Assembly: GCA_964510585.1 (NCBI GenBank) | Contig: CAZECW010000114.1 | Location: forward strand, 5,746 to 37,745 | Length of the DNA: 32,000 nucleotides | Direction: 5' to 3' | Origin: an uncultured archaeon | Lineage (GTDB): Archaea > Asgardarchaeota > Jordiarchaeia > Jordiarchaeales > Jordiarchaeaceae | Shown here: positions 351 through 23,883 of the stretch, piece after piece | Layout of the letters: every line of letters starts with the position of its first letter | Numbering within the stretch: position 1 is the stretch's first letter | Made by a program: the position numbers and the translations under genes | The notes under the pieces: generated by a model | What the model was told of the DNA's origin: nothing | Databases searched by the model: none | The model's input: the letters and a program-made list of their open reading frames with translations, nothing else

Positions 351-583
351 AAATATTTCCTCCAGAAAGGATTTAATTCAATTTTGATCATCAAACATAT
401 TAGTCTTCCTATAGATTAGGATAAAAAGAGGGATTTGTGGTGTTTCCTAGGGAGCGAATATTATTTTTAAATTATCTATATAAACGATTAGAGGGGATAG
501 GAGATTTTATTTTTAGGGAGTTGGCATAATTCTTTTTATATTATAATGTGTATAACAAGTTTAAGATCAGGAGGCTCAAATTT

Positions 584-2284: not shown

Positions 2285-2326
2285 TAACTCAATTTTACCT
2301 TAAAGGGATGAGAGGTGAGGCAGTTA

Positions 2327-3760
2327 ATGGATCAGAACGAGATTTTCAAAGTCCTTGCATCCATTGTGGGTGAAGAAGATGTTACAATAGATCCCGTTGA
2401 GCTTTTGGCCTATTCTTCGGACGCATCGCAATTAAAAGCAGTGCCAGTGGCGGTGGTGAGACCGGAAAACAAGGAGGAAGTTGCAGAAATCCTCAAATTT
2501 GCAGATGAAAACCGGATACCAGTTACTCCCAGAGGCGCGGGAACGAGTACTGCAGGGCAATCCCTTGCCTACAAAAATGGAATTCTAATGGACATGGTCA
2601 AAATGGACAAAATCTTGGAGATCAGCCTCAAAGATAGGATTGCGGTGGTTCAACCTGGAGTAATCTATGGAGAGCTAAACAAGGAACTTAGAAAGTATGG
2701 CTACTGCTTCCCCCCAGACCCAGGCTCAGCGATTGCCTGCACTGTGGGAGGAATGGTGGGAAACAACGCCAGCGGAGTGAGAGCATTAAAGTATGGAGCC
2801 ACAGTAGACCATGTTCTCGGGTTGGAGGTTGTTCTGCCAGGAGGCAAAATCATTAGGACCGGGGGGCGGGTCTGGAAAAGCTCCTCGGGCTATAACCTGA
2901 CTAGGCTTCTGGTGGGTTCTGAGGGAACCCTGGGAGTTTTCACCGAAATCATACTGAAGATAACGCCTATACCAAAGTACGTTGCGCTGATAGTTCCGGT
3001 TTTCGAAAAATTTGATCAAAGTTTGGAGGCAGCCACAGAAATCACAAATGCGGGAATCATGCCCTCGGCAATGGAAATTCTGGACGACCTTTGCATCATG
3101 GTTATGAACTCCTTTCTGGAAGAAAAACTTCCCCAGGCCGAAGCGCTTTTATTCATTGAGGTTGATGGAAACAACCAAAAGGCAATAATAGACGAATCAA
3201 ATATAATTAAGAGTATTTGCGAGAAACTTGGAGCCCAGCAAGTAATACAATCCACAGATCCTAAGAGGACAGAGGAACTCTGGAATCTAAGACATACTTT
3301 GGCAAACTTGCTTGCTAAAATAAGAGGGGAAAAAATGGCCATAAGCAGCATTATGGACTTCGCGGTGCCCATATCTCAGGTACCGGAAGCAGTAAGGGAA
3401 ATAAAAGCTTTGGCAGCCAAGGAAAAAAGACTTATGGCAGCGTTGGGACATATTGGGGATGGAAATGTACATTTTGGTTCGGCAATTAATGTGGAGGATC
3501 CTAAGGAGAGGGAAGCTGCTACCAAGTTTTCGAGACAAGCAGCAGAAGCTATAATAAAGAAATATGGGGGTACCTTAACAGCGGAACACGGCCTCGGACA
3601 GGCTAAATCTCATCTTGTAATGCTTGAGCACGGAGAAACAATTGAGCTTATGCGTGGAATTAAAAGAGTATTTGACCCTAACAACATAATGAACCCCATG
3701 GTGATGGGACTAACCGAAATCCCAGAGGACGAATACGTTTACATGCCAGGAGCAAAATAA
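2327..3760 (+). CDS. FAD-linked oxidoreductase, GlcD / D-lactate dehydrogenase family (copy 1)
   Basis: PRGAGTS, PPDPGS, GGMVGNNASG, GSEGTLG, GHIGDGNVH and AEHGLG motifs. ATG 2327 follows GAGGTGA. Confidence 0.92.
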   Translation: MDQNEIFKVLASIVGEEDVTIDPVELLAYSSDASQLKAVPVAVVRPENKEEVAEILKFADENRIPVTPRGAGTSTAGQSLAYKNGILMDMVKMDKILEISLKDRIAVVQPGVIYGELNKELRKYGYCFPPDPGSAIACTVGGMVGNNASGVRALKYGATVDHVLGLEVVLPGGKIIRTGGRVWKSSSGYNLTRLLVGSEGTLGVFTEIILKITPIPKYVALIVPVFEKFDQSLEAATEITNAGIMPSAMEILDDLCIMVMNSFLEEKLPQAEALLFIEVDGNNQKAIIDESNIIKSICEKLGAQQVIQSTDPKRTEELWNLRHTLANLLAKIRGEKMAISSIMDFAVPISQVPEAVREIKALAAKEKRLMAALGHIGDGNVHFGSAINVEDPKEREAATKFSRQAAEAIIKKYGGTLTAEHGLGQAKSHLVMLEHGETIELMRGIKRVFDPNNIMNPMVMGLTEIPEDEYVYMPGAK

Positions 3761-3913
3761 TCTAGGGAAAGGAAGAGCCTAGGTGGGTTGGTTAATTCTA
3801 TATCGAAAAATGTGGCTAGAGTTCAAAACGTTAGGTTTAATGCTTTGTTAGGAGTAAAGGATATAATCATAGTGAATCTTTGTAAAACAGACAATTTTTT
3901 GGGTGAATTATTG

Positions 3914-5353
3914 ATGGATCAAAAGGAGATTTATGAAGCCCTTGCGGCGATTGTGGGTGAAGACGACGTGACCATAGATCCAGTTGAGCTGGTGGCCTAT
4001 GCTTCGGATGCTTCGTTTCTGAGAGCCATACCAGTGGCGGTGGTGAGACCGGAAAGCAAGGAAGAAGTTGCAGAAATTCTCAAATTTGCAGATGAAAACC
4101 GGATACCAGTTACTCCCAGAGGTGCGGGAACGAGTTACGCGGGACAATCCTTAGCATACAATAACGCAATTCTCATAGATTTCGTTAAAATGGATAAAAT
4201 CTTGGAAATCAACCTGAAAGATAGAGTAGCAGTGGTTCAACCAGGAGTAATCTACGGAGAGCTAAACAAGGAACTTAGAAAGTACGGCTACTGCTTCCCC
4301 CCAGACCCAGGCTCAGCGATTGCCTGCACTGTGGGAGGAATGGTGGGAAACAACGCCAGCGGAATTAGAGCGGTAAAGTATGGAGCCACAGTAGACCATG
4401 TTCTCGGGTTGGAGGTTGTTCTGCCAGGAGGCAAAATCATTAGGACCGGAGGGCGGGTCTGGAAAAGCTCCTCGGGCTATAACCTGACTAAGCTTCTGGT
4501 GGGTTCTGAGGGAAGCTTGGGAATATTCACAGAAATAATATTGAAGATAACACCTGCACCAAAGTATACCGCCATGATAGTGCCGGTTTTCGAAAAGTAT
4601 GAGCAGGGGTTGGATGCGGCCACGGAAATTATTAATACGGGCATTCTGCCCTCAGCGATGGAGATTCTGGACGACGTATGTATAATGGTTCTGAATTCTG
4701 CCCTTAAGGAGCAGGACAGACTCCCGCCGGCTGGCGCAGTATTATTCATTGAAGTTGATGGAAGCAACCAAGAGGTTGTCAAGGAGGAGGCGGAGACAGT
4801 TAGAAAGGTTTGTGAAAAAATAGGTGTGAAGCAAATTATATACGCCACAGATCCTAAGAGAACAGAGGAGCTTTGGAAACTTAGACATTCCTTGGCAAAC
4901 TTGTTAGCGAAACTGAGGGGAGAAAACATTGCGATAAACAGTATTCAAGACTTTGCGGTACCCATATCTCACGTGCCAGAGGCTATTAAGGAGGTTAAAG
5001 CGTTGGCTGCCAAGTATGGGAGACTTATGGTGGCCTTTGGACACATCGCCGATGGAAATGTTCACCTAGGTAGCGCCATAAATGTGGAGGATCCTGCGCA
5101 GAGAGAGATGGCTGTGAAGTTTGCAAGTGAAGCTGCAGACATTATTATCAAGAAGCATGGTGGAACTCTGTCGGCGGAGCATGGGACGGGTGTATCAAAG
5201 GCTGCGTTTATTGAGTTGGAGCACCGTGACACCCTTACCCTGATGCGGGGAATTAAGAAGGTTTTTGACCCACACAACATTCTGAACCCCATGGTTATGG
5301 GATTAACCGAAATACCAAAAGATGAATTTGTTTATATGGCTGGTGTGAAGTAA
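3914..5353 (+). CDS. FAD-linked oxidoreductase, GlcD / D-lactate dehydrogenase family (copy 2, tandem paralog)
   Basis: Same motifs as copy 1 (GHIADGNVH, AEHGTG). ATG 3914 follows GGGTGA and aligns with the copy 1 start (MDQ). Confidence 0.92.
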   Translation: MDQKEIYEALAAIVGEDDVTIDPVELVAYASDASFLRAIPVAVVRPESKEEVAEILKFADENRIPVTPRGAGTSYAGQSLAYNNAILIDFVKMDKILEINLKDRVAVVQPGVIYGELNKELRKYGYCFPPDPGSAIACTVGGMVGNNASGIRAVKYGATVDHVLGLEVVLPGGKIIRTGGRVWKSSSGYNLTKLLVGSEGSLGIFTEIILKITPAPKYTAMIVPVFEKYEQGLDAATEIINTGILPSAMEILDDVCIMVLNSALKEQDRLPPAGAVLFIEVDGSNQEVVKEEAETVRKVCEKIGVKQIIYATDPKRTEELWKLRHSLANLLAKLRGENIAINSIQDFAVPISHVPEAIKEVKALAAKYGRLMVAFGHIADGNVHLGSAINVEDPAQREMAVKFASEAADIIIKKHGGTLSAEHGTGVSKAAFIELEHRDTLTLMRGIKKVFDPHNILNPMVMGLTEIPKDEFVYMAGVK

Positions 5354-6537
5354 TGTCGACGGATGAAGAGAAAAGGAAAGCAATGGAAGATTGGGAAAAA
5401 TTAAAGGCTGCGGAGAAGAAGACTCTGAATGATTTTCGAACACAGCTTGCTATGTGTAATATTTGTGCCTTTTGTAGAATTAGGTGTCCAGTTTACCAAC
5501 AGGTTAAGTGGGAGTCGGTGACGCCGAGGGGAAAGATGCAACTACTCAGGAATGTGGTTAAGGGATGGATTAAGCCCACACCACAGGTTGCGGAGAGAAT
5601 TTTCTCCTGCACAACCTGTCAGATTTGCAACCAGCAATGCGACGCAGAGGTTCGTCCATTTGACATTCTCAAAGTTGCGAGAAGAGAATTCACAGAACAG
5701 GGTCTGGGTCCTCTTCCAGAGGAGAAAAAAATGGACAGGAGAATAAAGGAGTATAAGAATCCCTACAAGGAGCCTCAGGAGAAACGTTTTAACTGGTTAG
5801 AGGTTAAGGTTCCAAAAACTGCGGATACTCTGCTCTATTTTGGCTGTGTTACAGCTTACCGATTTGGAGAAACGGGCAGGGCCATTGTGGAACTGCTCAG
5901 AAAGGCGGGATACCAATTCACAATAACTCCTGATGAGGGCTGCTGTGGTATGCACCCCTACTGGGATGGGGAAATTAAACTCTCTGCAGAAATAGCCAGG
6001 GAAAACTTGGAAATATTCAGAAAAACTGGGGCGAAGCAGATAGTCACCGCCTGCGCTGGGTGCTATTCTACCTTTAAAAACGCCTATCCTATGCTCGTGG
6101 AAAATTTCGACTTTAAACTAATGCACTTCTCAGAGCTTCTACAGGAACTGATTAAGAAAGGCAAGCTCAAACTTAAGAAAAAATCTCCCATGAAGGTGAC
6201 CTACCATGATCCCTGCCACTTGGGGAGACATGCTGGAATATACGATGCACCCCGAGAAGTAATCAAATCCATACCTGGATTGGAGCTGGTAGAGATGGAG
6301 CATAGTAGGGAAGATTCACAGTGTTGTGGTGGCGGGGGAGGATACTTTACTGCATTTCCAGAAAACTCCGTGGAGATAGCTGAAAAACGTATAAGGGAAG
6401 CCGAGGAAACCGGAGCAGATGCAATAATTACAACCTGTCCCCTCTGTAGAACAAATTTGGATCTGGCTATTAAGAGATTGGATTCTAAACTAAAACTTTA
6501 TGATTTATCAGAGTTAGTGTTAGAGCACGTAGTCTAG
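5353..6537 (+). CDS. Fe-S oxidoreductase, GlcF/HdrD family (two ferredoxin-type motifs plus two CCG domains)
   Basis: CNICAFCRIRCP, CTTCQICNQQC, EGCCG, YHDPCHLGR, QCCGGGGG. TAATG overlap with the upstream stop codon. Confidence 0.92.
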   Translation: MSTDEEKRKAMEDWEKLKAAEKKTLNDFRTQLAMCNICAFCRIRCPVYQQVKWESVTPRGKMQLLRNVVKGWIKPTPQVAERIFSCTTCQICNQQCDAEVRPFDILKVARREFTEQGLGPLPEEKKMDRRIKEYKNPYKEPQEKRFNWLEVKVPKTADTLLYFGCVTAYRFGETGRAIVELLRKAGYQFTITPDEGCCGMHPYWDGEIKLSAEIARENLEIFRKTGAKQIVTACAGCYSTFKNAYPMLVENFDFKLMHFSELLQELIKKGKLKLKKKSPMKVTYHDPCHLGRHAGIYDAPREVIKSIPGLELVEMEHSREDSQCCGGGGGYFTAFPENSVEIAEKRIREAEETGADAIITTCPLCRTNLDLAIKRLDSKLKLYDLSELVLEHVV

Positions 6538-6562
6538 TAGGGTTTGAATCCGTTCTCCCAAA

Positions 6563-6579
6563 TTTTTATTTTCCTTTTT
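6563..6579 (+). terminator. T-rich putative archaeal terminator after the GlcF-like gene
   Basis: tttttattttccttttt about 25 nt after the stop codon. Confidence 0.4.
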
Positions 6580-6700
6580 ATAATCTGGTTTTAAACTGTT
6601 GTATCATTACTTACTTTTCCAGCTGCTAATTTTTATGTGAGAATGGTGTGAAAAGTTTTGATGAGATGTGGAATGGAATCATTTATGGATGTGAATTTGT

Positions 6701-8401
6701 ATGAAGCAGAGTTTGCGGAGCGACCTTATTAAGAGGGGATTTCAGAGGTGTACTCAGAGGGCGCTGCTTAAATCTTTGGGTTTAGACGATGAGGCTATTG
6801 AGAGGCCTTGGGTGGCGGTGGTTAACTCCTGGAATGAGATTGTTCCGGGTCACATACATCTCAGATCTATTAGTAGAGCGGTTAAGGCGGGGATTATTTC
6901 TGCAGGAGGCACACCCTTTGAGTTTGACACCATAGCTATTTGTGACGGTTTATGTCAGGGAACTATCGGTATGAGGTACCCTCTCCCCAGTAGAGATATT
7001 ATTGCGGATAGCATTGAAGTTATGGTAGAGGCCCACATGTTTGACTCCATGGTACTTATTCCCTCCTGTGATAAAACTGTTCCGGGACACTTAATGGCCG
7101 CGGCCAGGCTGAATATTCCCTCCATCGTGGTAACGGGCGGCCCCATGCTTCCCGGCTCATATAGGGGTAGGAAGATTACCACAGTGGAGATGCGGGAGTT
7201 TATGGGCAAATTTAAGTTGGGTGAGTTAAGCGAGGAGGAGTTGAACATAATTGAGGGATTAGCCTGCCCGGGTCCAGGTTCCTGTGCCATGCTGGGAACC
7301 GCAAACACCATGGCCGCAGTAACTGAAGCTTTGGGAATGTCGCTTCCCGGCTGCGCCACGGCCCATGCTGTGGATGCCAAAAAGATCCGCATAGCCCAAG
7401 AGACTGGAAAAAGAGCAGTCAAACTTTTGGAAGAAGGATTGCTTCCCAGGGATATAATGACGCAGCAAGCATTTGAAAACGCTATTATAGTGGACTTGGC
7501 TCTGGGAGGCTCTCTCAATGCTACTCTACACATTCCAGCCATAGCGCGGGAGGCAAAGCTAAACATTAGCCTAGAGAGGATGGATGAGTTGAACTCGTTA
7601 ACACGCCACATTTGCAACCTTCTGCCATCGGGTCCCTACAACCTTAAAGATTTAGATGAGGCGGGAGGAATACCCGCAGTTATGAAGGAGCTGAGCGGAA
7701 TTCTCAATCTTGACTGTATTACGGTGACTGGAAAAACAGTTAGAGAAAACATTAGTGATGCGAGAACATTGAGGCCGGAGGTCATAAGACCATTTGACAA
7801 CCCAGTTCACTCGGAGGGAGGGCTTGCTGTCCTTAAAGGAAATCTAGCCCCAAACGGATCCGTGTGTAAACATGTAGCGGTGGTTAAAGAAATGCTGGTT
7901 CACAGGGGCCCCGCAAAGGTCTTTGACTCCATGGAGGAGGCTATAGAAGCCCTATTAGGTGGCCAAATAGTGGCCGGCGATGTCATAATTATCAGGTATG
8001 AGGGACCGAAGGGTGGGCCGGGAATGCGTGAAATGCACCAGATAGCTTCCATAATAAACGGAATGGGGCTGGGGGACAAAGTGGCATTAATAACTGATGG
8101 ACGTTTCTCTGGTTCCACCAGAGGAGCCATGATTGGACACGTCTCCCCCGAAGCCGCCGAGGGCGGACCCATAGCAGTAGTAAAAAATGGAGATCCGATA
8201 CTAATTGATATTCCCAAAAGGAGACTAAACATGGAAGTGTCTGAAGATGAACTTAAAAGGCGTCTAGACGAGTGGAGGAGCAAAAAGCCAAAGCTTAAGG
8301 GCGCTAAGGGTTATCTTAAGCGTTACCGCTTTTTCGTCACTTCTGCGGATAAGGGTGCAGTACTCAAAGAGCCAAATGGTGATCCTGCCTTAGGCAAATA
8401 A
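6701..8401 (+). CDS. ilvD: Dihydroxy-acid dehydratase (IlvD/Edd family)
   Basis: [59 protein letters not shown]. Confidence 0.93.
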
Positions 8402-8449
8402 TCCGTTACATACAAAAGGAATATTTTTGGTTTTGAACTATGTTATTTC

Positions 8450-8782
8450 ATGGACACTGAAACTTATGTTGCCAATTTTTTGGAGGTTTTTCCACCCATC
8501 AGGGACGCAATGACTTCTAGAATGGCGGAGCTTAACAAACAATTGAACAAAAAAAAGGAGAAGAACCCTTTTCTCATAATGCAAAAAATGATGGAAGTTA
8601 CAATGGAAGTCATCAAAAAATTTGAGCCTCAAATCAAGAAAAAAACAGGAATGACAGCCGAAGAATTCCTCAAATACCAAAAAGAACACGAGGAAGAAAT
8701 TGAAGCCTACCTAGAGGAGCACCCAGATCTAAAGGAGAGAATGGAAAAACTCAAAGTAAAGATAAACATCAACGAATTGTAA
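8450..8782 (+). CDS. Hypothetical small charged all-helical protein (110 aa)
   Basis: Clean ORF filling the gap after ilvD, K/E-rich helical composition, followed by T-tracts. No motif recognised with confidence. Confidence 0.7.
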   Translation: MDTETYVANFLEVFPPIRDAMTSRMAELNKQLNKKKEKNPFLIMQKMMEVTMEVIKKFEPQIKKKTGMTAEEFLKYQKEHEEEIEAYLEEHPDLKERMEKLKVKININEL

Positions 8783-9012
8783 GAAAAGTTACTCCTTCCT
8801 TACTAATTATTTTTTCTATTTCCCTCCCTACTTAATATTTATTTAGATATCATGTATTCCCCCTTTATGTTGGTTTTTCTTTTTCTGGAAAAAAACTAGG
8901 TTTCGGCTGTGTAAATCGTGTAGAGATTTTTATTAATGAGCTGGGTGGATAACGGTTATTAGAAGAAAAGGTCTCATACACTTCTGATGCAAAACGTTTT
9001 GAGTGTGGTTAT

Positions 9013-10764
9013 ATGCCTTACTTGACTGGCGGAGAGATAATTGCCAAGACTCTTTTAGCTGAGAAAATTCCCTATGCAGTTGGAATCCCTGGACATGGGA
9101 ATCTCGGTTTGGTTGATGCCTTTAAAGAACATGAAGTACCCATCATCCAAGTTAGACACGAACAGTCCGCTTGCCATCTGGCAGACGGTTACTGTAGAGT
9201 CACTGGTAAACCATTAGCGGTTTTCACTTCTATAGGTCCCGGCGCCTGTAACACGGTTATTGGTGCAGCCACCGCCTACCTAGACAGCATTCCTATGCTG
9301 ATTTTTACTGGTTCGGTTCACACCTACATGTTTGGTAGGGGCGTTCTGCAAGAAATTGAGAGAAAACACTGGGCGGATTTCCCCAGAGTTATGGAGCCAG
9401 TGGTAAAGAAGAGTTATCAGGTAACCAGAGTCGACCAGTTGCCGTGGGTTTTAAACAATGCTCTCAGAACCGCTCTTGGTGGAAGGCCGGGTCCTGTACA
9501 TATAGATTTGCCTATGGATGTTCAAGCAGAGGCCGCCGAAGTGGAACTTCCGGAGCCTATAGGTTCCAAACTTGGGGGAAGAGTTCAGGGTGATCCTGAG
9601 AAAATACTTGAAGCGGCCAAACTTTTGGCGAAGGCTGAGAGACCTGCGATTCTTGCTGGTGGAGGAGTAATACTCTCAAATGCTGAAAAGGAGCTTGTAG
9701 AGCTGGCAGAATTTCTGGGAGCCCCAGTAATAACAACAATGATGGGGAAGGGCGTGATTCCAGAGGATCATCCGCTGAACGCCTTTTATACTGGTTCCAA
9801 GGGTTCACCTGTGGGAAGCAAGATTGGGAGGGAAGCAGATGTGCTTCTTGCGGTGGGATGCCGCTTTGCCGATGAAACCACCAGTTCCTATAAGCCTGGT
9901 GTATCCTTTAGTATTCCTCCCACCAAACTGATACATGTGGACATTGACCCTGGAGAGATTGGGAAAAATTATCCAGTCGAGGTGCCAATACTGGGTGACG
10001 CGAAGAGTGTTCTGGGAGAACTGCTCAAAGCCCTTCAAAAAATAACTTCAAAAAGGAAGTATGAGCAGTCAGAATACTTCAAGAAGCTGTGCAGGCTCAA
10101 GGAAGACTGGGAAAAGGAGTTGCAAAGGCTGAGGGAGGGCTATCCCACTACGATATCTCGCTATCTTAAGGAGTTGAGGAAAGCTTTGCCTCGTGAAACC
10201 ATAGTTGTCACGAGTGCTGGACATGCGCAAGCGTCGGCATGGCAGGAGTTTCCAGTTTACTATCCTAGGACTCATATTTCACCCGGTGGATTTTCAACTA
10301 TGGGGTTCGGTGTCCCCGCAGCCATAGGAGCCAAACTTGCCAAACCTGAGGTACCAGTCATTGCCATAGAGGGTGATGGTTCATTCCTTATGACCTGCCA
10401 AGAATTGGCAACAGCTGTCCAGTACGAAGTGCCCATACTGGTCACCATTTTCAATAATTATGGCTGGATCGCTATACGAGACCTGCAAATTGACGTTTAT
10501 GGTAAAGAAAGAAGCTATGGTGTGGAGTTTAGGAACAAAGCCGGGCAACTCTACTCCCCAGACTATGTGAAGCTAGCCGAATCCTTTGGATGCTACGCGG
10601 AAAAAATAGATAAGGGTGAACAAGTGGCGCCGGCTATTCAAAACGCGATAAGCTCAGGTAAACCAGCAGTGATAGAATTAGAGGTGGCTCTGGAGCATCC
10701 TAGAAGCCAGGGCAAAGCATACGGCTGGTGGGATGTCCCTATACCCAAATATCTAAGAAGATAG
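9013..10764 (+). CDS. TPP-dependent enzyme with an IolD-like N-terminus (acylhydrolase/ALS superfamily)
   Basis: GIPGHGN (compare IolD GIFGHGN), RHEQ, GRPGPV, GDGSF...NNYGWIAIRDLQ. Confidence 0.85.
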   Translation: MPYLTGGEIIAKTLLAEKIPYAVGIPGHGNLGLVDAFKEHEVPIIQVRHEQSACHLADGYCRVTGKPLAVFTSIGPGACNTVIGAATAYLDSIPMLIFTGSVHTYMFGRGVLQEIERKHWADFPRVMEPVVKKSYQVTRVDQLPWVLNNALRTALGGRPGPVHIDLPMDVQAEAAEVELPEPIGSKLGGRVQGDPEKILEAAKLLAKAERPAILAGGGVILSNAEKELVELAEFLGAPVITTMMGKGVIPEDHPLNAFYTGSKGSPVGSKIGREADVLLAVGCRFADETTSSYKPGVSFSIPPTKLIHVDIDPGEIGKNYPVEVPILGDAKSVLGELLKALQKITSKRKYEQSEYFKKLCRLKEDWEKELQRLREGYPTTISRYLKELRKALPRETIVVTSAGHAQASAWQEFPVYYPRTHISPGGFSTMGFGVPAAIGAKLAKPEVPVIAIEGDGSFLMTCQELATAVQYEVPILVTIFNNYGWIAIRDLQIDVYGKERSYGVEFRNKAGQLYSPDYVKLAESFGCYAEKIDKGEQVAPAIQNAISSGKPAVIELEVALEHPRSQGKAYGWWDVPIPKYLRR

Positions 10765-10825
10765 AGGTTACAATCTACCTATTAACAGTTTGATAAAAGA
10801 AAAAAGATTAGTAAATTTACTCGTG

Positions 10826-10862
10826 TTTCCTTTTTTCCTACCTTTTCATTTTTTTCTGTTTC
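10826..10862 (+). terminator. T-tract terminator region between convergent genes
   Basis: Pyrimidine/T runs (tttccttttttcctaccttttcatttttttctgttt) downstream of the TPP gene. A-runs near 10795-10805 read as T-runs on the minus strand. Confidence 0.45.
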
Positions 10863-10911
10863 TTACTGCAACTTTGTGGATCTTCAAGGGGTATTTGGTT
10901 AGTTTTTTTCA

Positions 10912-11997
10912 TTATTTGATTTCGTCTGGGCTTACTTCTTTGTGGGTTTCTGCGGATTTTAGGGCTGCGAGGGCGAATTGGAGAACCTTTTTTCCCTCCT
11001 CACCGGATAGTATTGGTTCCTTGTCCTCTAATATGGCATCGATAAAGTGGAGGGTGGAGTCAATGAAGCTGTCCGCCCAATCGCATCGAAGATTCTCAAA
11101 GCACGTCAATTCTCCATCTTTATACATTATGACTGAGGGAATATCGAGCAGTTGTCCAGTGCACTGGTTTATCCAGATATAACCTTTTGTACCTGTGATT
11201 TCCACCCTCTCGTCAGTGCCATAATATTTGGATTTAATTTTCATTTCTGGAGCGAAGGATGTGTCCCATACTCCCAATTTTCCGGGAGACTTGTACTTCC
11301 ACATAATTATAGCTGGAGAGTCAAGACATAAGCCAGGCCCCAGCTCTGTAGTTTCAATCCAAGCAAATACTTTGTCCACATCTCCCATAAAGTAGCGTGC
11401 AATGGAAAACTTGTGATAGCCGTCATCCCAAATGGTGGGTCCCCCACCACACTGTTCCGGCGTAAAACGCCACATCCAAGCCTCCAAGGGCACCTCCCAG
11501 CCACACTCCACGGAGCCCGAAGTCATCTTGATTCGAATCATGTGTGGGTTTCCAATTTCTCCAGCATCCATTAGCTCCTTTGCCTTGCGGTAAGGTGGAT
11601 AGAAGATGAAGTTTTCATAAACCTTAAACTTGACTCCCGCCTTTCTGGCGGCGCTTATCATCTCATCCATTTCCTTCACATTCATGGCGGGTGGTTTCTG
11701 AACCGAAACATGCTTACCAGCCTCAGCTGCGGCGACAGCAACCTCTTTGTGCAAATAGTGGGGAAGCAGTATCTCCACCATATCTACCTGTTCGTCCTTG
11801 AGTAAATCCTTGTAATCCCTGTAAATTTTAGCTTCGGATAAACCATACTCTTTAGCCTTCTTTTTTGCTCTCACTCCTCTCGAATCACAAAGAGCCACAA
11901 TCTTAGCCTTATCGGTCTGTAGATAGCCGAGAACATTAAGGTCGAAAATCCGACCACACCCAATAATTCCGACACCCAGAGGCTTCAACTTTAACAC
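10912..11997 (-). CDS. Gfo/Idh/MocA family NAD(P)-dependent oxidoreductase
   Basis: GIIGCGRI Rossmann motif, PHYLH, GKHVSVQKP, DDGYH. The start could also be TTG at 11988. Confidence 0.92.
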   Translation of the reverse strand: MLKLKPLGVGIIGCGRIFDLNVLGYLQTDKAKIVALCDSRGVRAKKKAKEYGLSEAKIYRDYKDLLKDEQVDMVEILLPHYLHKEVAVAAAEAGKHVSVQKPPAMNVKEMDEMISAARKAGVKFKVYENFIFYPPYRKAKELMDAGEIGNPHMIRIKMTSGSVECGWEVPLEAWMWRFTPEQCGGGPTIWDDGYHKFSIARYFMGDVDKVFAWIETTELGPGLCLDSPAIIMWKYKSPGKLGVWDTSFAPEMKIKSKYYGTDERVEITGTKGYIWINQCTGQLLDIPSVIMYKDGELTCFENLRCDWADSFIDSTLHFIDAILEDKEPILSGEEGKKVLQFALAALKSAETHKEVSPDEIK

Positions 11998-17747: not shown

Positions 17748-18635
17748 TTATATGCAGCGGTATAGTTGAATGAGGGGAGTTACATCGTTTATGGCGGCTT
17801 CGAGGCTTATGGAAGCGTATTGGTCTATATGATATTTTCCCCCTTCTTCTTTTAGTATGCGGTGTTTGACCAGTATTTCTAGGGTTTCTATTAGGCGTTC
17901 CTGGGGATTAAAGTTTTTAATTTGGTTCACGGTTTGGTTCTGCAAAATTTGGAGCGTGGTCACTTCTAGTTTTTTCTGGCGTATTTCTCTTAGTGCGGAT
18001 ACAATGTTTTTGGGGGGCGGTATTCCCACTTTCCAGATGAGTGTTTCTCTCCCCAGTCCTTGGAGGTTTATTATTTTGTTGTCGTGGAGCTGTTTTATGA
18101 TTAGTTTGGGGTTGTTAGAAAAGTTTTGTGTGATTTTTATAATTTCTTCCTTATTTACAAGTGGGGGGGAGTGAAGTATGGCGTCGAATAGTTTTCTGGT
18201 TTCTCTCCAGTCTTGGTGTGTTCCCTCAAGGGGGAGGGGACTGTACTTTAGCACGGAGAGTCTTCCGTCTTTCTCCAGGATGGGGGATAGTTCCTTTTCG
18301 ACTTTTTGGATGAGTGTTTTGAGGCAACCGTTACCGTTTGGTGTTAGTCCAGTTATTTCCGTTACCAGTTCGGGTAGTTCTGCAGGTATGCTGAGCAGTC
18401 TTGTGGCTCGAGCGATGATTGATTCTATTCCCCGGGAGTAGAAAACATCTATGAGTTTCCTTATCTGCTGGGTGGGCAGGATGGGCTTTTTCTCACAGAA
18501 TTTTTTTATGCACTGGTCAATGAATTTTCTTCGGAGTTCCTGCCCTACCTCCAGTGATGGGAAAAGTGTGGTGAATGATACCGCATCCCTATTCGCTCGG
18601 ATAAAGCCCATCGAATCCGAGTGTTTGTTGTTCAA
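17748..18635 (-). CDS. Hypothetical protein (295 aa), third gene of the herA-nurA operon, possible C-terminal winged-helix repeats
   Basis: TTG start 1 nt after the nurA stop, with GGGGGG upstream. Segments PKLIIKQLHDNKII and LIETLEILVKHRILKEEGGKYHI resemble wHTH recognition helix plus wing. Confidence 0.75.
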   Translation of the reverse strand: MNNKHSDSMGFIRANRDAVSFTTLFPSLEVGQELRRKFIDQCIKKFCEKKPILPTQQIRKLIDVFYSRGIESIIARATRLLSIPAELPELVTEITGLTPNGNGCLKTLIQKVEKELSPILEKDGRLSVLKYSPLPLEGTHQDWRETRKLFDAILHSPPLVNKEEIIKITQNFSNNPKLIIKQLHDNKIINLQGLGRETLIWKVGIPPPKNIVSALREIRQKKLEVTTLQILQNQTVNQIKNFNPQERLIETLEILVKHRILKEEGGKYHIDQYASISLEAAINDVTPLIQLYRCI

Positions 18636-18636
18636 A

Positions 18637-19851
18637 TCAAACCCCCCTAGGCTTGCTTACCTTCCAAATCACCTCTAATCCATGTTTTGGTTTAAAAAGG
18701 CGATAAAACTTTTTGGGAGAAATTTTATTCTGCCGGGCTATTTTGACAATCTTGGCTAACAACTCGTCCGCAAGAAAGTTGGGTAAATCTGTCTCTATGA
18801 GACTGAACGCATGGGCAAACTCAAGCGACCAAGGTACATTGTTCAGGTTGCTTGCCTGGTAATAAATTGCGGAACACACATATTCGAGTTGCTTTTCGCT
18901 TTCCGCTATATCCTTGTGTAACTCTACTCTGATGGGGAGAGCTTCTGGGTGGGGCTTTATGTAGAAGAACTTTTGTTGGGAAAGAAATTTGGAGTAACGT
19001 TCGCCGAATATTTTCCTATTCGCCAGAGTTGTCCACAGATCACTTGTTTGGGGAACTGTGATGTTTAGCTCATCCCGATTACCCGGTCGGAGAAGGGAGT
19101 CCAAAAGGTTGGCATCATTTATTCGGCCATAAACTCCACTTAACCAGTAGGAAACGTTCTTGTATTTTGAAATTAGATCCATAGAGTGGGGGGACTTTAT
19201 CACAAAAGCATGGAGTGTCTCTAAGAGCTTTTCAGACAGTATATCTGCCGTGCCCTGGCTTCCATAGATTTTTTCGAAAATAATTTTGTACTCCTGCTGC
19301 ACCTCTCGACTCTGGTTACTGAAAATTTCTGATTCCCCCAGACTATAGGGCAGAAGATCATAGTGAGGAACAAAGGGGCCGTCCAGCAAAACGAGATCGC
19401 AACTGTTTCCCTCAAGTGCACGTAGACTAACAAGGCGCTCAAGATACTGTCGGGACACTGCTTGAATCCGCTCCACGTCCTCGTCTACCAGGCCCATAAC
19501 AGGTATACACTTTCCAACAATGTAGGGATTATGTGCCACGGGATTGTTACATTTGAAGGTTATTCCCGCCGCTGAAACTACAATGAGATCCAAACCCGCC
19601 CTTTGGCTTCTATTGGAGGAGCCGTCAACTGCAACTGTAACAGCATCTCGGGCTGCAGGATTGGTGTTAAGTGTTAGGGTTTCAAGCTGCTTACTCTCAC
19701 TTAGATTCTCAACTGATTCTATGAGATCCAGATACACGTCGTAGAACCGATATACTTCAGATTCGAGTATGTCCAGTGTCTGGTGGAAGATTTCTCCACC
19801 ACAATTTCCGCCGCTTTTCTCCTCTTCCAAGAATTTTAAAAGGTTGTTCAC
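18637..19851 (-). CDS. nurA: NurA-family 5'-3' nuclease
   Basis: AVDGS, LERL, LLDGP, FFYIK...PIRVE, PWSLEFAH: all canonical NurA motifs with the acidic/His catalytic residues kept. GTGA overlap with the herA stop. Confidence 0.88.
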   Translation of the reverse strand: MNNLLKFLEEEKSGGNCGGEIFHQTLDILESEVYRFYDVYLDLIESVENLSESKQLETLTLNTNPAARDAVTVAVDGSSNRSQRAGLDLIVVSAAGITFKCNNPVAHNPYIVGKCIPVMGLVDEDVERIQAVSRQYLERLVSLRALEGNSCDLVLLDGPFVPHYDLLPYSLGESEIFSNQSREVQQEYKIIFEKIYGSQGTADILSEKLLETLHAFVIKSPHSMDLISKYKNVSYWLSGVYGRINDANLLDSLLRPGNRDELNITVPQTSDLWTTLANRKIFGERYSKFLSQQKFFYIKPHPEALPIRVELHKDIAESEKQLEYVCSAIYYQASNLNNVPWSLEFAHAFSLIETDLPNFLADELLAKIVKIARQNKISPKKFYRLFKPKHGLEVIWKVSKPRGV

Positions 19852-21449
19852 ACTCTATTCCTCTCCGCGAAGTCCCTATGGAGATCAAAGACTGTGTTTC
19901 CGCCGTAGCCCAGCTGTATGTCTCCCTTTTCAATGGTTACACAGAGAGGGTCCTTCAGCGGAGTGGCCATACCAGCTATCAGGAACTCTCCCACCCCCAA
20001 ACGAGGAAGAATCTTTTGAATCTCTGGAAAATCAGTGTAGTCTTCTATGGCTCTCATATCATTTGCTGCTGTTAAACACCCACAGAAGAGAGTGCTGAGG
20101 TTTGAGAAGACTGTTTTTGAGATTCGGGAGATTCTTTGATTAATGATGGTTAGGTTTGCCCCGAACTTGCGGCCCTCCTCAGAGAGGCTTGTTATTTTTC
20201 CTGAGGAAAGGTAGGGTTTTCCAACGGTTATCTGACCGTAGGAACCACCCATTTCAGGAATATAGTTTTTCGCCTCATCAATTATTAGGTGAATCGGGTA
20301 TCTGTTTCGAAGAATCAAATCAGCAATAGTTCCAATCTTAGCCTGTCTGGCATCCAATGTGTCACAAGAAGCGTCAATAACCAGTATGTTACCAGCAGCC
20401 CTCTTCCAAATTGTGTTGTACTGATCCACGCTGCCCCCTGCAAAAATATCTTTGCCCAGCAATTTAACCCGACGCCGTATGGCTGCACTCCAGCTGCTTA
20501 TAGAACCATCCTTTTTATAGAATTCGTCTAGCCACTCATTCACATAGGACATAAAACATTCACTATTAAGCTCCGCAGCACCACATGTGAAATCCATCAC
20601 GAAAATATCCGCCGCCACCTCTACAGCCTTCTTAGCCTGAGAGGGAAGCACATCTAATCCCAGAGTTTTAACAATATCGTTAGCATCTGTAGGAACCACC
20701 GGTAATTCTAAACTAGACATAACCTGGAAATTGCTACACAACTTGTCCAGATTGCTGGTAGCATATTCACCAGTATGATCCCAAACTATAACATTAACTT
20801 TCTTTTTTAGAGAGGATAACCCCACAATATTAGCCGCAGTGGTGACGCTCTTGCCCATACCTATACGGGCGAATATTCCCACCCCCAAACGCAGTATAGC
20901 TGAGGCGTCTAGATCCACTGGGTAATCGGTTTCGCGAATCTTACCCACAGGATAGTATTCTCCCTCCCTAGCGGGGTCTCGGAATAGGGCTTCGTAATCT
21001 TCCTTGTTGGATATGAATATGGGGGAACAGGGTTTGGGAGGGTGAGATAACCTGCGCACTCCGGGATGGGCAGGAATTCCATATATGCGAAGCTCGCCGA
21101 ACTTCATATTTTGATCTAGTCTGGGAACCTCACCGTAAAGGCTGGAGAAGTAGTTCAAAACGTCGGTGGTTGCCCCCCTTGTGGCAGCGAAAAGGTTTGA
21201 AACCAGCCCAATAGCTTTAGTTTTTTGGTGGCTGACGGTGAGGAGTTGGCCCTCATAAACATAATCCGTGGCGTAGTCGAAGACTGCGAAATCGCACTTT
21301 TTAGTGCTGGTTGGACTTGTTACGAAACCTACGGGAGAGGCGCCCTTCAAGATTTGTTCTTTTGAACGCAAATACTCATATTCTTCGACTTCGGAGCTCA
21401 TAACGGCTCGCAGCACGGATGTTTCGAGGCCTGTTTCCTCAACCGTCAT
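19848..21449 (-). CDS. herA: HerA-family ATPase/helicase (HAS barrel plus FtsK/HerA ATPase)
   Basis: Walker A FARIGMGKS, VWDHTGEY, Walker B LIIDEAK, arginine finger EGRKFG, and QR motif. N-terminal beta-rich HAS-like region ending in PPKPCSPI. Confidence 0.9.
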   Translation of the reverse strand: MTVEETGLETSVLRAVMSSEVEEYEYLRSKEQILKGASPVGFVTSPTSTKKCDFAVFDYATDYVYEGQLLTVSHQKTKAIGLVSNLFAATRGATTDVLNYFSSLYGEVPRLDQNMKFGELRIYGIPAHPGVRRLSHPPKPCSPIFISNKEDYEALFRDPAREGEYYPVGKIRETDYPVDLDASAILRLGVGIFARIGMGKSVTTAANIVGLSSLKKKVNVIVWDHTGEYATSNLDKLCSNFQVMSSLELPVVPTDANDIVKTLGLDVLPSQAKKAVEVAADIFVMDFTCGAAELNSECFMSYVNEWLDEFYKKDGSISSWSAAIRRRVKLLGKDIFAGGSVDQYNTIWKRAAGNILVIDASCDTLDARQAKIGTIADLILRNRYPIHLIIDEAKNYIPEMGGSYGQITVGKPYLSSGKITSLSEEGRKFGANLTIINQRISRISKTVFSNLSTLFCGCLTAANDMRAIEDYTDFPEIQKILPRLGVGEFLIAGMATPLKDPLCVTIEKGDIQLGYGGNTVFDLHRDFAERNRV

Positions 21450-21476
21450 ACAAATTACCCCGTAGGGCTTTAGCTT

Positions 21477-21515
21477 GGTTCATTTTATAGGTGAACCACT
21501 ATTTAAATTTAGTGG
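21477..21515. promoter_or_regulatory. Two overlapping inverted repeats around TATA-like cores upstream of herA
   Basis: GGTTCA-N9-TGAACC (21477-21497) and CCACTA-tttaaatt-TAGTGG (21496-21515). The minus strand reads TTTAAATA and TATAAAAT within them, 30-60 nt upstream of the herA ATG. Confidence 0.45.
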
Positions 21516-21551
21516 AAAACACAAAAAATTTTTGAATTAATGGAAGGATAA

Positions 21552-21592
21552 CCTATCATAATATATAAATAAAATGCGTTTTTTGTGATAGG
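21552..21592. repeat. 41-bp element copy 1: CCTATCA-N27-TGATAGG
   Basis: Perfect 7-bp inverted arms around an AT-rich spacer containing TATATAAATA. 31/41 identical to copy 2 by hand count. Confidence 0.75.
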
Positions 21593-21737
21593 ACTTCTTA
21601 TTTACTGAAAAAACTTTCTTGAAATTGTGAAAGTGGCAGGAGCAAAAAGAAGTAAGGTATGATACTTTGGGGAAAATTTGGATACTTTTTGAACAATTTT
21701 TACTGGTCTGGGGGCGAATCTGGAGGGCAAGCTTGTT

Positions 21738-21778
21738 CCTATCATTATTTATAAATAATTTCGGATAGTTGTGATAGT
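21738..21778. repeat. 41-bp element copy 2: CCTATCA-N27-TGATAGT
   Basis: Same arms and the same 27-nt spacing as copy 1. Contains the perfect palindrome ATTATTTATAAATAAT (21744-21759). Confidence 0.75.
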
Positions 21779-21966
21779 AGCTATGTTGTGCTTATTGTAC
21801 TTTTAAAGGGATATTTCTGAAAAAGACCATAAAATATATATACAGGATATATGATATTTCATACAAAAACCACCACTTCCACTCGTTTAGAAATAAATAA
21901 AATAATATTGACAGGTTTATTCGTCTTACCTACGGGAAAATCGGTGATTATTTCGAGGCGTCCTAG

Positions 21967-22263
21967 ATGATAGATGAATTACTAGGTTTGGGTAGATCAA
22001 AGACACGTTTGGATATTGTAAACCTCATGTTGGATGAGGGTAGACCCTTATCAGCTTCAGAGATAGCGGAAAAGCTGGGTATCAGCCTTAACGCTGCAAA
22101 TATTGCTATCCACTATTTGAATAAGGCGCGTCTTTTGAATAAGGTTGAACGTGGCATGTATGAGGTCAATGTTTATGCCTTCTGTAAGGCGTTTCTAACT
22201 TTTCTTTTAGGTTCTAAGGTTAGCGGTTATGCTGGTAAGAGTCTTGAAGAATACACAAAGTGA
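21967..22263 (+). CDS. Small winged helix-turn-helix protein 1 (98 aa)
   Basis: PLSASEIAEKLGISLNAANIAIHYLNKARLLNKVERGMYEVN. Confidence 0.85.
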   Translation: MIDELLGLGRSKTRLDIVNLMLDEGRPLSASEIAEKLGISLNAANIAIHYLNKARLLNKVERGMYEVNVYAFCKAFLTFLLGSKVSGYAGKSLEEYTK

Positions 22264-22283
22264 GTGGGAGGTGAAAAGCCAGG

Positions 22284-22562
22284 TTGAGTGGTCTATTAGA
22301 CGATACGGTGCTGCGGCTCCGAGGTGGCAGTCTAAAGGTTCTATCGCTTCTATCCATTTCGCACCGTCCCTTAAGGCCGGTTGAGATAGCGGATATTCTG
22401 GGCATGCAGCTCAACGATGTGGGAAAGTATCTTGTTAGGTTGGCTAGTAAAGGGCTGGTTTCGAAGGTTAACTTGAATGGCAATTCCACTGGTTACACTT
22501 CAAACCTAGATATTCTGGAACTTGTGCTGGACCATGAGCGTAGATTAAGGAATTTGGAGTAG
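22284..22562 (+). CDS. Small winged helix-turn-helix protein 2 (92 aa)
   Basis: PLRPVEIADILGMQLNDVGKYLVRLASKGLV. TTG start with GGAGGTGA RBS at 22267-22274. Confidence 0.85.
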   Translation: MSGLLDDTVLRLRGGSLKVLSLLSISHRPLRPVEIADILGMQLNDVGKYLVRLASKGLVSKVNLNGNSTGYTSNLDILELVLDHERRLRNLE

Positions 22563-22589
22563 GGCCTGTTTAGGAATGGGGGCTGCTTT

Positions 22590-22889
22590 TTGAGTTCCGA
22601 GGATAGCGATAATCTTTTTGACAAGTTCGACAAGCTTATGAGGATGAGGGATAATGCAAACAAGGTGCTCATCTACATTCTAACTAGCCCTAAGCCAGTG
22701 ACTCCTAAGGAGCTTATGGATAACTTGGGTTTGACTGAGAATAGTGTTTGGAAGACTGTTAGGCGATTGGAGGCAGATGGTTTTCTTAGATTGGTTGGTA
22801 GGGGGGAGTATGAGCCTAACTTGGGTTTGTTAACTGCGCTTCTTCTGTTTAAAGTGCAGGAGTTAATTAAAATGTTAGAAAAGAGATGA
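22590..22889 (+). CDS. Small winged helix-turn-helix protein 3 (99 aa)
   Basis: SPKPVTPKELMDNLGLTENSVWKTVRRLEADGFLRLVGRGEYEPNLG. Confidence 0.87.
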   Translation: MSSEDSDNLFDKFDKLMRMRDNANKVLIYILTSPKPVTPKELMDNLGLTENSVWKTVRRLEADGFLRLVGRGEYEPNLGLLTALLLFKVQELIKMLEKR

Positions 22890-22893
22890 TTGG

Positions 22894-23205
22894 ATGAGTG
22901 ATGATGAAGAGCAGATTAGTTCCAAGGAGGCGTTTAATAAATTATTGAGGCTGGGCGAGTCCTCCATTCAGATAATTGAGTACATACTTTGCTCACCTAA
23001 ACCCGTGACTCCTAAAGAACTGGTGGAAAAGTTGGGAATTACGGAAGGCACGGCTTGGAATGCGTTAAGCAGATTGCAGAAGATTGGTTTCCTTGTTACC
23101 AAAAGTAGGGGGGAGTACGAGGCAAATATAGGATTTATTTTAGCCATGGTTCTTTTCACACTAAGCGATATGGCTGAAAAATTGAGAGAAGTAAAGAGGA
23201 GGTGA
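22894..23205 (+). CDS. Small winged helix-turn-helix protein 4 (103 aa), close paralog of protein 3
   Basis: SPKPVTPKELVEKLGITEGTAWNALSRLQKIGFLVTKSRGEYEANIG. 38 of 87 aligned positions identical to protein 3 (hand count). Confidence 0.87.
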   Translation: MSDDEEQISSKEAFNKLLRLGESSIQIIEYILCSPKPVTPKELVEKLGITEGTAWNALSRLQKIGFLVTKSRGEYEANIGFILAMVLFTLSDMAEKLREVKRR

Positions 23206-23556
23206 ATACAAGGAGGAGTAACCGGAGAATGGAAAAGTTTGCAGGCTATTAAAATTTTCCGGGGAAGACATTTTCCACATCGAAACCATATTTTCCAGAA
23301 TTGAGAGATAGACTTGGCGGCTCCTACAAAACATGGAAAGATTTGGGTTCGTTGGTCTTGTGGTTTAAATATGAGCCCAATCAAATAATCAGGTGTAGGA
23401 AGGATGTGTCCCAAATATAAGATTCTTGGTGGCTAAAGCTCTGGAAATTGTTCTAAACGCTGACAAAGGGGATAAATGGTAAGAAGGAGGAACCAAAATG
23501 AATTAATTAAAATTTATGATTTAAAATTTAATTCAATGTGTTTGGAGGTTTAACAA

Positions 23557-23883
23557 ATGGAAGATGAAGATGTGTTTGAGGAAGGAGAGGCATTTGGGGG
23601 AGATTATAAGACTCTAATAAAGAAGTTAATTGATCCTAGAGCCAGAACTATGTATTCCATCTTGGAACTTCTGCTTCAAAATGTGAAGAGTGAACCGGTT
23701 TCTGCCAGTAATATAAAGGATAAGCTGGGGATTTCTAAGCAGGCGGCTACCAATGCTGCGCGTAGGCTTGAGGAAACAGGATTCATAACCCGCACGCCTG
23801 AGGGATATATGGTAAATCAGGGATTCATAATAAATTTGTTAATCCAACTTGTTGGGGAAATCTTGAAAAAACTGGAGCTCTAA
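23557..23883 (+). CDS. Small winged helix-turn-helix protein 5 (108 aa)
   Basis: PVSASNIKDKLGISKQAATNAARRLEETGFITRTPEGYMVNQG. GGAGGT RBS upstream and an acidic N-terminus. Confidence 0.87.
   Translation: MEDEDVFEEGEAFGGDYKTLIKKLIDPRARTMYSILELLLQNVKSEPVSASNIKDKLGISKQAATNAARRLEETGFITRTPEGYMVNQGFIINLLIQLVGEILKKLEL

Follow-up and report, generated by a model that had tools for sequence, protein, structure and literature searches.

A HerA-NurA paralog block of Jordarchaeales with a divergent winged-helix gene array and a locus-specific palindromic element

HerA and NurA form the core DNA-end-resection machine of Archaea, the cellular roles and the control of which are debated. To our knowledge, no NurA or HerA protein of an Asgard archaeon has ever been characterised. 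A 2026 review listed four NurA homologs in Freyarchaeum and referred to Asgard NurA as uncharacterised (PMC13748450). The closest described systems are the canonical end-resection complex (herA-mre11-rad50-nurA of Sulfolobus, Pyrococcus and Thermococcus; PMC13748450, PMC12977600), an accessory nurA-csm6-herA pair of Thermoproteales (PMC3396285) and the anti-phage systems Sir2-HerA and DUF4297-HerA (PMC11472057, PMC11291478). Here we analyse a 32,000-nt stretch of archaeal DNA (hereafter the window, to whose positions all coordinates refer) containing a block (the cassette) in which herA, nurA and an orphan gene X face an array of five small winged-helix-turn-helix (wHTH) genes. The names carried by homologs of X, HerA and the array protein wH2 (Candidatus Freyarchaeota, Freyarchaeum deiterrae, Jordarchaeia, Jordarchaeales) place the lineage among the Asgard archaea. 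The block is real and conserved, a variant of the HerA-NurA theme that is undescribed in the papers searched; the claim of an architecture new to the literature, made in an earlier reading of the bare sequence (the original prediction), agrees with our failure to find a paper describing it. With a probability of about one half, we interpret it as an accessory module for DNA-end processing in Jordarchaeales, inherited vertically and regulated locally, to which the winged-helix array supplies dedicated regulators.

According to the list of open reading frames (ORFs), X, nurA and herA lie on the minus strand in translational coupling, and the five paralogous winged-helix genes diverge from them across a 517-bp spacer (Table 1). 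The GTG start of nurA is embedded in the herA stop as a GTGA overlap (the minus strand reads AGA GTG TGA), and the nurA/X junction, TGA-T-TTG, leaves a 1-nt gap; the TTG start of X is preceded by a GGGGGG run, and on our reading of the sequence a purine-rich, Shine-Dalgarno-like run stands before both junctions, i.e. before the nurA start and before the X start. The flanking genes are convergent with the block and encode an Fe-alcohol dehydrogenase (ADH; 5-nt gap) and a Gfo/Idh/MocA oxidoreductase (83-nt gap). A coupled herA-nurA-X operon facing five wHTH genes across a repeat-bearing spacer had been the starting observation of the original prediction, and its coordinates, overlap, gaps and repeat were all reproduced. 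As in the canonical system, herA and nurA are adjacent and coupled, and their products retain the Pfam HerA central and NurA domains, the Walker A and B motifs and the acidic NurA residues. In contrast to that system, mre11 and rad50 are absent, HerA scores no more than 31-46 bits with equivalog models whose cut-offs are 800-970, the divergence of NurA is such that no solved NurA is matched by sequence, and the orphan X and the divergent wHTH array are added.

Orthologs of the cassette HerA were found in all five other species of the same genus (g1; 90-100% identity) and in four out of five species of a second Jordarchaeales family (f2; 70-72% identity), the single genome lacking it being only 83% complete. 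The window proteins were compared by tblastn with 8-18 kb around the orthologs on six contigs, two of them partial (G009 stops within nurA and G002 begins just upstream of herA). This comparison showed that the order and orientation of X-NurA-HerA opposite wH1-wH2-wH3-wH4(-fifth) are kept in both the genus and the second family, and altogether nine species genomes besides this one share the arrangement, as do several metagenome contigs. The level of identity in the second family differs from gene to gene (NurA ∼52%, X ∼34%, wH1 52-57%, wH2 76-79%, wH3 48-56%, wH4 58-62%). A metagenome-assembled genome (MAG) labelled Heimdallarchaeota carries HerA (61%), NurA (41%) and six divergent, collinear wHTH genes with no X, and its neighbouring genes are only 28-50% identical to those of our genome. 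A 5.4-kb contig labelled Korarchaeota, the upstream side of which is cut off, encodes HerA (39%) and NurA (31%), again with no X. Patterns specific to the cassette HerA, applied to the GTDB species genomes and the JGI metagenomes, retrieved only loci of the Jord/Freyarchaeia type plus one distant relative, and no match to this HerA beyond Jordarchaeales was obtained at E ≤ 1e-30 in the other 390 of 400 Asgard species genomes.

The genes around the block are not conserved along with it: the block of the genus member G005 has neither the ADH nor the Gfo/Idh/MocA gene beside it, and no flanking gene of the window occurs at the blocks of the second family. The suggestion that the block is a self-contained unit is thus borne out by an order kept in relatives while the flanking genes change, and the synteny of the wHTH array with HerA-NurA extends over two families and one more distant MAG. 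It could be argued that the adjacency is accidental or historical, the array regulating unrelated genes with no functional tie to herA-nurA, as small wHTH regulators are abundant in the genome. We consider this scarcely credible, given that adjacency, orientation and a shared spacer element (see below) are kept even where identity has fallen to 61% in HerA and 41% in NurA and the surroundings have changed, that the version of this element with a TATA-like core occurs solely at the cassette in six genomes, and that an orthologous array away from herA-nurA was seen in none of ten loci examined.

Table 1. Features of the cassette and its control region, with the recognition-helix signature of each array group.
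Feature	Position	Strand	Description	Recognition helix
gene X	17748..18635	-	295 aa, orphan third gene, TTG start	
nurA paralog	18637..19851	-	404 aa, GTG start	
herA paralog	19848..21449	-	533 aa, FtsK/HerA-type ATPase, first gene of the operon	
divergent control region	21450..21966		517 bp	
palindrome CCACTA-TTTAAAT-TTAGTGG	21496..21515		TATA-like box ∼50 nt upstream of herA; candidate herA core promoter	
element copy 1	21552..21592		CCTATCA-N27-TGATAGG around a TATA-like core; TATATAAAT	
element copy 2	21738..21778		CCTATCA-N27-TGATAG around a palindromic TATA-like core; TTATTTATAAATAA	
conserved GACCATAAAATATATATAC block	21825..21843	+	∼120 nt upstream of wH1; candidate core promoter of the wHTH operon (putative function)	
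wH1	21967..22263	+	98 aa, small wHTH; HTH_24, HTH_20 and HTH_5 matches (Pfam)	NA-N-A-HYL
wH2	22284..22562	+	92 aa, wing insertion; HTH_IclR match (Pfam)	DVGKYLVRL
wH3	22590..22889	+	99 aa; HTH_11 and HTH_24 matches (Pfam)	NSVWK-VRRLE
wH4	22894..23205	+	103 aa; array representative used for the model	GT-WNALSRL
wH4b relic	23399..23464	+	decayed sixth array member, inside the wH4-wH5 gap	PSNLSH
wH5	23557..23883	+	108 aa; MarR and HTH_11 matches (Pfam)	ATNAARRLEE in the genus; SVTNVGARLEE in the Heimdallarchaeota-labelled MAG

The genome in question (3.78 Mb in 217 contigs, 96% complete) encodes four NurA proteins, each adjoining a HerA, and at least five HerA-type genes including further DUF87 proteins. 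The canonical arrangement is found on contig C118, where the NurA-HerA pair is followed by a Metallophos (Mre11-like) gene and then by an SMC_N/AAA_23 (Rad50-like) gene. No such linkage exists at the cassette, and since the Mre11-Rad50-linked NurA-HerA sits on another contig, the cassette pair is an accessory paralog, as supposed in the original prediction of a stand-alone, paralogous HerA-NurA. A third pair, on contig C137, is followed by a gene of the metallo-beta-lactamase fold, with a 94-aa ArsR-type wHTH protein encoded nearby, and the proteins of the fourth (C195) are unusually long (644 and 623 aa). A HerA gene without a NurA, located beside a gene for a 486-aa protein of no assigned family, is present on contig C130.

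A maximum-likelihood tree was built from 24 HerA sequences, comprising the cassette orthologs, the paralogs of the same genome with their own orthologs, and the nearest matches from other Asgard archaea; having long branches and no experimentally characterised references, it speaks to distinctness rather than origin. The cassette HerA forms a clade of its own (100/100 support), which includes the Heimdallarchaeota- and Korarchaeota-labelled sequences and shows a long stem, short tips and an internal topology mirroring the taxonomy. The C137, C130 and Mre11-Rad50-linked C118 types fall into separate groups. The tree thus sets the cassette HerA apart from the other HerA types. Rather than being the sole copy in the genome, grouping with the housekeeping HerA and lying next to a non-syntenic array, which would have spoken against the original prediction, the cassette pair is one of four, has its own clade and keeps its synteny.

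A comparison with the order-wide C137-type HerA gives identities of 70-72% (cassette) vs 62-64% (C137 type) in the second family and 90% vs 85% in G005; judged by these sequence identities, the cassette HerA is the slower-evolving of the two paralogs. The C118 type sits on a very long branch of the tree and has no ortholog in the second family at E ≤ 1e-20; there, a different HerA type adjoins the Rad50-like gene (G006:C1:220413-225000, G007:C28:14365-19116, G009:C17:44964-49022). It would seem that, in the history of the order, the HerA linked to Mre11-Rad50 was replaced or exchanged. With the C118 type in the genus and another Rad50-linked HerA in the second family, every genome examined therefore has a Rad50-linked HerA besides that of the cassette. 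At the nearest non-orthologous HerA loci (from other Asgard genomes and one metagenome contig), a NurA gene is located next door in four out of six loci read, and none of these six has a wHTH array of the cassette family. One of the distant loci (L052; metagenome contig Ga0080006_1133872, 378-4659) encodes a HerA of 549 aa and a NurA of 406 aa followed by a third gene without a family (354 aa), with a divergent 95-aa gene lacking a Pfam match upstream; its layout resembles that of the cassette, its sequences being unrelated.

As to the proteins themselves, the HerA central (DUF87) domain PF01935 was matched at 8e-13 (49.4 bits against a Pfam cut-off of 23.2), and the Walker A motif GMGKS (197-201; G197-x-G199-K200-S201) and Walker B motif IIDEA (389-393; D391-E392) are invariant in seven orthologs. 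NurA matched PF09376 at 6.6e-14 (52.4 bits, cut-off 21) over positions 3-238 of the 254 of the domain. Eight NurA sequences representing three paralog types (the cassette type, the Mre11-Rad50-linked C118 type, and the C137 type including two other Asgard genomes) were aligned, and D76-G77, E138 and D157-G158 are the same in all of them. By order and context rather than by structural alignment, we take these residues to be the published DGS...E...DG metal-binding motifs. Because the catalytic motifs are invariant, both HerA and NurA look active, as far as sequence can tell. No solved NurA was detectable in the PDB with the cassette NurA, either as a single sequence or as a profile. A match of the NurA profile (residues 89-133, ∼19453-19587 on the minus strand) to residues 17-60 of bovine RNase A (E 4e-3 for a single chain, 13 bits per stretch) was judged to be due to chance.

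The cassette HerA does not belong to any of the NCBIfam equivalogs compared. It scored 45.7 bits against a cut-off of 800 (NF040937) and 30.9 bits against 970 (NF040819) with the repair HerA models, 42.6 bits against 800 (NF042943) and 40.9 bits against 850 (NF042944) with the anti-phage HerA models, its partner being NurA, and 45 bits against 600 with the import ATPase CedD of the Ced/Ted systems, CedB giving no match. No membrane-protein gene is seen in the block, as judged from domain matches and alignments rather than from transmembrane prediction. In a PDB sequence search, solved HerA structures aligned solely with the C-terminal ATPase part of the protein, and the best matches were 9c1m, 8ziq and 8xau, entries titled 'ATP-binding protein' or 'HerA', which outscored the repair HerA 4d2i and which we take to be anti-phage HerAs.

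These PDB matches are among the arguments for an undescribed antiviral or anti-plasmid defence system, composed of a HerA-type ATPase, a nuclease effector, X as a sensor or adaptor, and wHTH regulators, and they are joined by the weak PADLOC matches of the array proteins to the wHTH parts of Csa3/CasR. Other HerA paralogs do act in defence, and the cassette, like Sir2-HerA and DUF4297-HerA (PMC11291478, PMC11472057), pairs a HerA-type ATPase with an effector enzyme; a CRISPR-linked nurA-csm6-herA paralog is moreover known from Thermoproteales (PMC3396285). With the latter the cassette shares the status of an accessory nurA-herA pair beside the repair pair, a vertical mode of inheritance and a lineage-specific third gene. 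On the other hand, it has no csm6, no CRISPR array and no nearby cas genes (neither csm6 nor a CRISPR array lies beside the pair, the 32 kb are free of tandem repeats and the neighbours are metabolic), the attached genes being X and the wHTH paralogs. It differs from the anti-phage HerA systems in that its effector is NurA and not Sir2 or DUF4297, in a similarity limited to the C-terminal ATPase part, in a vertical, order-wide distribution, and in a location outside any defence island.

Overall, we regard the defence explanation as distinctly unlikely. The block is present near-universally, collinearly and vertically in the order and not patchily, its HerA evolves, by the identities given above, more slowly than the order-wide paralog, its flanks are metabolic and variable, no cas, CRISPR array, restriction-modification or other defence genes lie within the 32 kb, and the anti-phage HerA models were missed at 41-43 bits against cut-offs of 800-850. 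The PADLOC check proposed with the original prediction returned generic HerA matches only, and no system match for NurA or X. A survey of a complete Freyarchaeia genome by DefenseFinder and PADLOC makes no mention of HerA or NurA and reports no integrated mobile elements (PMC11529989).

The last observation bears likewise on the possibility that the cassette is the remnant of an integrated plasmid or virus, i.e. a domesticated replicon or partition module, which we hold to be very improbable. The self-contained nature of the block with flanks differing between genomes would suit such an origin, as would weak matches of single wHTH genes to RepL, KorA and a phage replisome organiser, all of them below the cut-offs. 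Against it, the borders show no integrase, transposase, tRNA or direct repeats; base composition shows no break between the block and its surroundings; the cassette HerA has no match among phage records and only distant plasmid matches, which are bacterial, cover 33% and concern the ATPase domain; and the HerA phylogeny is congruent with taxonomy. The 32-kb window contains no tRNA, no tandem repeats and no Rfam match, and outside the block it is metabolic, encoding thiamine diphosphate (ThDP) enzymes, flavin adenine dinucleotide (FAD) oxidases, a dihydroxy-acid dehydratase, an aldehyde:ferredoxin oxidoreductase, the ADH, a glycosidase and a trehalose-phosphate synthase. The defence and domesticated-replicon roles put forward in the original prediction are thus both disfavoured by vertical, near-universal inheritance, slow evolution, metabolic flanks, the lack of a PADLOC system for NurA and X, and the lack of plasmid or phage relatives. 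As a separate observation, positions 548-11997 form an upstream metabolic cluster of two ThDP enzymes, two GlcD-like FAD oxidases, a CCG/Fe-S protein, the dihydroxy-acid dehydratase and a second Gfo/Idh/MocA protein.

The spacer between the two arms contains two 40-nt repeat copies (21552-21591 and 21738-21777) that are 78% alike, and these are the only matches to CCTATCA-N27-TGATAG in the 3.78-Mb genome. In five other genomes, versions of the element with a TATA-like core occur solely in the cassette spacer, all other matches remaining at the level of a reversed-pattern control. In the genus and in three of the four second-family spacers read, copy 1 is retained, and in G009 it has degenerated; for copy 2, the second-family versions are degenerate but can still be recognised, and the spacer of the Heimdallarchaeota-labelled MAG has two ATTTATAAATAAA cores from which the half-sites are gone. 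The half-sites are 34 bp apart centre to centre, a distance that only two dimers, or an oligomer of larger size, would span. Most of the spacer has diverged within the genus, with the exception of near-invariant blocks, namely the TTTAAAT box in CCACTA...TAGTGG, a ATGGAAGG box just before copy 1, the GACCATAAAATATATATAC block (invariant in four genus-level spacers) and ACTTCCACT. In the herA-side palindrome, TTTAAA and the right arm are conserved in the genus and the left arm is not conserved in G005. Neither a credible small ORF nor an Rfam family was found in the spacer.

All five small proteins of the array match HTH/wHTH families in Pfam, and in NCBIfam they come closest to Lrs14 and Sta1, with 16-27 bits where the cut-off is 90. 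An AlphaFold2 (AF2) model of wH4, obtained with a 27-sequence alignment (predicted local distance difference test score, pLDDT, 91.5), begins with an N-terminal helix, continues with a three-helix wHTH and a two-strand wing, and ends in a long C-terminal helix. Foldseek matched this model with AbfR2 (6cmv), ST1889 (2d1h) and an ArsR-like protein (2oqg) at template-modelling (TM) scores of 0.57-0.71, and with IclR, CadC and MarR regulators as well; against AbfR2 and ST1889, TM is 0.57-0.66 over nearly the whole length. The array proteins thus resemble the Lrs14/Sta1 regulators in their size of ∼100 aa and in the succession of N-terminal helix, wHTH and long C-terminal helix, and differ from them in their low family scores and in a fixed operon of five or six paralogs tied to herA-nurA. 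Formal Lrs14 membership (NF040939) is not supported, the best score being that of wH4 (27.4 bits against 90), although the modelled fold, a wHTH with a long C-terminal helix in ∼100 aa, agrees with that of Lrs14. We know of no fixed multi-paralog operon arrangement for Lrs14 proteins.

In a tree of the array, members at the same position form orthologous groups shared by the genus, the second family and the Heimdallarchaeota-labelled MAG (support of 100/100 for wH2, 87/80 for wH1, 99/98 for wH3+wH4 and 95/90 for wH4b). The wH1 ortholog of the MAG is 45% identical, and wH5 groups beside the last array gene of the MAG (44% identity), with no wH5 ortholog seen in the arrays of the second family. 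It follows from the positional orthology that the duplications of the array predate the split of the lineages and that the gene order has been kept since. Each orthologous group also keeps its own recognition-helix signature in an alignment of the array proteins (Table 1). The best-conserved member is wH2, its identity in the second family exceeding the ∼71% of HerA, and its homologs are confined to Jord/Freyarchaeia in a word-limited search. When run against the same genome, the family profile gave 79-120 bits for the five array genes and 38 bits for the next best protein.

The 351-bp gap between wH4 and wH5 (23206-23556) contains the relic of a sixth member, wH4b, identified by 12/22 identity to the C-terminal part of an intact G005 gene (L025:11630-11956; E 0.003 in the window). 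This gene is intact in the G005 lineage, in the second family and in the Heimdallarchaeota-labelled MAG, and only relics of it are left in the two closest relatives. In a ∼95% related strain, positions 23236-23356 of the gap are replaced by 126 other letters. Short contigs of a ∼95% related strain from one RNA-Seq run overlap portions of X/nurA, herA, wH1 and wH2-wH3; since assembled contigs reveal neither transcription nor its start or strand, and since two runs with a metatranscriptomic label probably represent DNA, no weight was given to them.

The same features have to be weighed with respect to another explanation, in which the wHTH paralogs would be subunits of fixed stoichiometry, possibly joined in a hetero-oligomer, that target or load HerA-NurA(-X) on DNA and direct it to particular sites in the recruiting place of Mre11-Rad50. 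The fixed gene order with its ancient positional orthologs, the five or six distinct and conserved recognition helices, the conservation of wH2 above that of HerA, the restriction of the wHTH family to the cassette locus in the genome, and the tight packing of the array with overlaps, as in operons for multi-subunit complexes, all speak for it. However, the fold and the nearest families are those of classical small dimeric transcription regulators, the array is divergent from herA and not translated along with it, and a locus-specific palindrome around TATA-like cores is the habit of an autoregulator. On balance, we consider targeting subunits possible, if rather doubtful. Of the original prediction, which saw in the wHTH proteins the subunits directing a HerA-NurA translocase-nuclease, a dedicated wHTH array tied to HerA-NurA has stood, and their nature as physical subunits is no more than a possibility, as the regulator fold and the palindromic element fit transcription regulators at least as well. 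The more specific version, a hetero-oligomeric, sequence-reading platform of the wHTH paralogs that loads or gates HerA-NurA(-X) at defined chromosomal sites, appears to us unlikely; if true, it would amount to a site-directed archaeal DNA-processing machine.

The third gene of the operon, X, has no Pfam, NCBIfam or PADLOC family, and no Pfam family is common to its six orthologs. A profile of the six found only 3 cluster representatives among 1.84 billion proteins. An AF2 model from the 6-row alignment (pLDDT 44) is too poor for a fold search. The predicted secondary structure has helix-helix-helix-hairpin stretches, and the nearest structures are tandem wHTH proteins (TM ∼0.5 by target), a weak lead obtained from an Atlas model with a pLDDT of 0.49; a comparison of X with the profiles of the wHTH array by hhalign was not significant (probability 0.4%). 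Its absence at both of the most distant loci marks X as an addition specific to the lineage, not as a core part of the cassette.

For the preferred interpretation of the array as dedicated regulators of an accessory DNA-end-processing module, what follows is inference as regards the binder of the element, the regulation, the assembly of a complex, the substrate and the part played by X. If the pair works like the HerA-NurA complexes characterised so far, HerA would form a hexamer that passes DNA on to a dimer of NurA, which would digest it from the ends. Probably acting as dimers or in oligomers of mixed composition, the winged-helix proteins would bind the spacer elements and other conserved boxes, and such binding would set the transcription of both arms and keep the nuclease machine under tight, local regulation. 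The cellular use would be specialised repair or recombination rather than phage defence. Dedicated transcriptional control is the simplest reading in view of the regulator-like wHTH fold in combination with a palindromic element unique to the locus; vertical inheritance, slow evolution, variable metabolic flanks and, again, the unique element make a regulated cellular DNA-processing function a better fit than defence or a mobile remnant.

Several observations weigh against this interpretation. Five or six regulators for one three-gene operon are more than regulation needs, and the conservation of wH2 above that of HerA (76-79% vs ∼71%) is a pattern more usual for structural subunits than for local repressors. 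The elements lie ∼100 nt from the herA start and ∼190 nt from the wH1 start, so that their cores may be either promoters or upstream sites. X finds no explanation in it and is absent from the Heimdallarchaeota- and Korarchaeota-labelled loci, and vertical inheritance would be compatible with a role in defence too.

For the Asgard archaea, the analysis provides one NurA-HerA paralog with a defined and conserved context, comprising candidate DNA-binding partners or regulators together with a candidate binding site. The role and the control of the extra HerA-NurA pairs thereby become testable with a few recombinant proteins and one 517-bp fragment.

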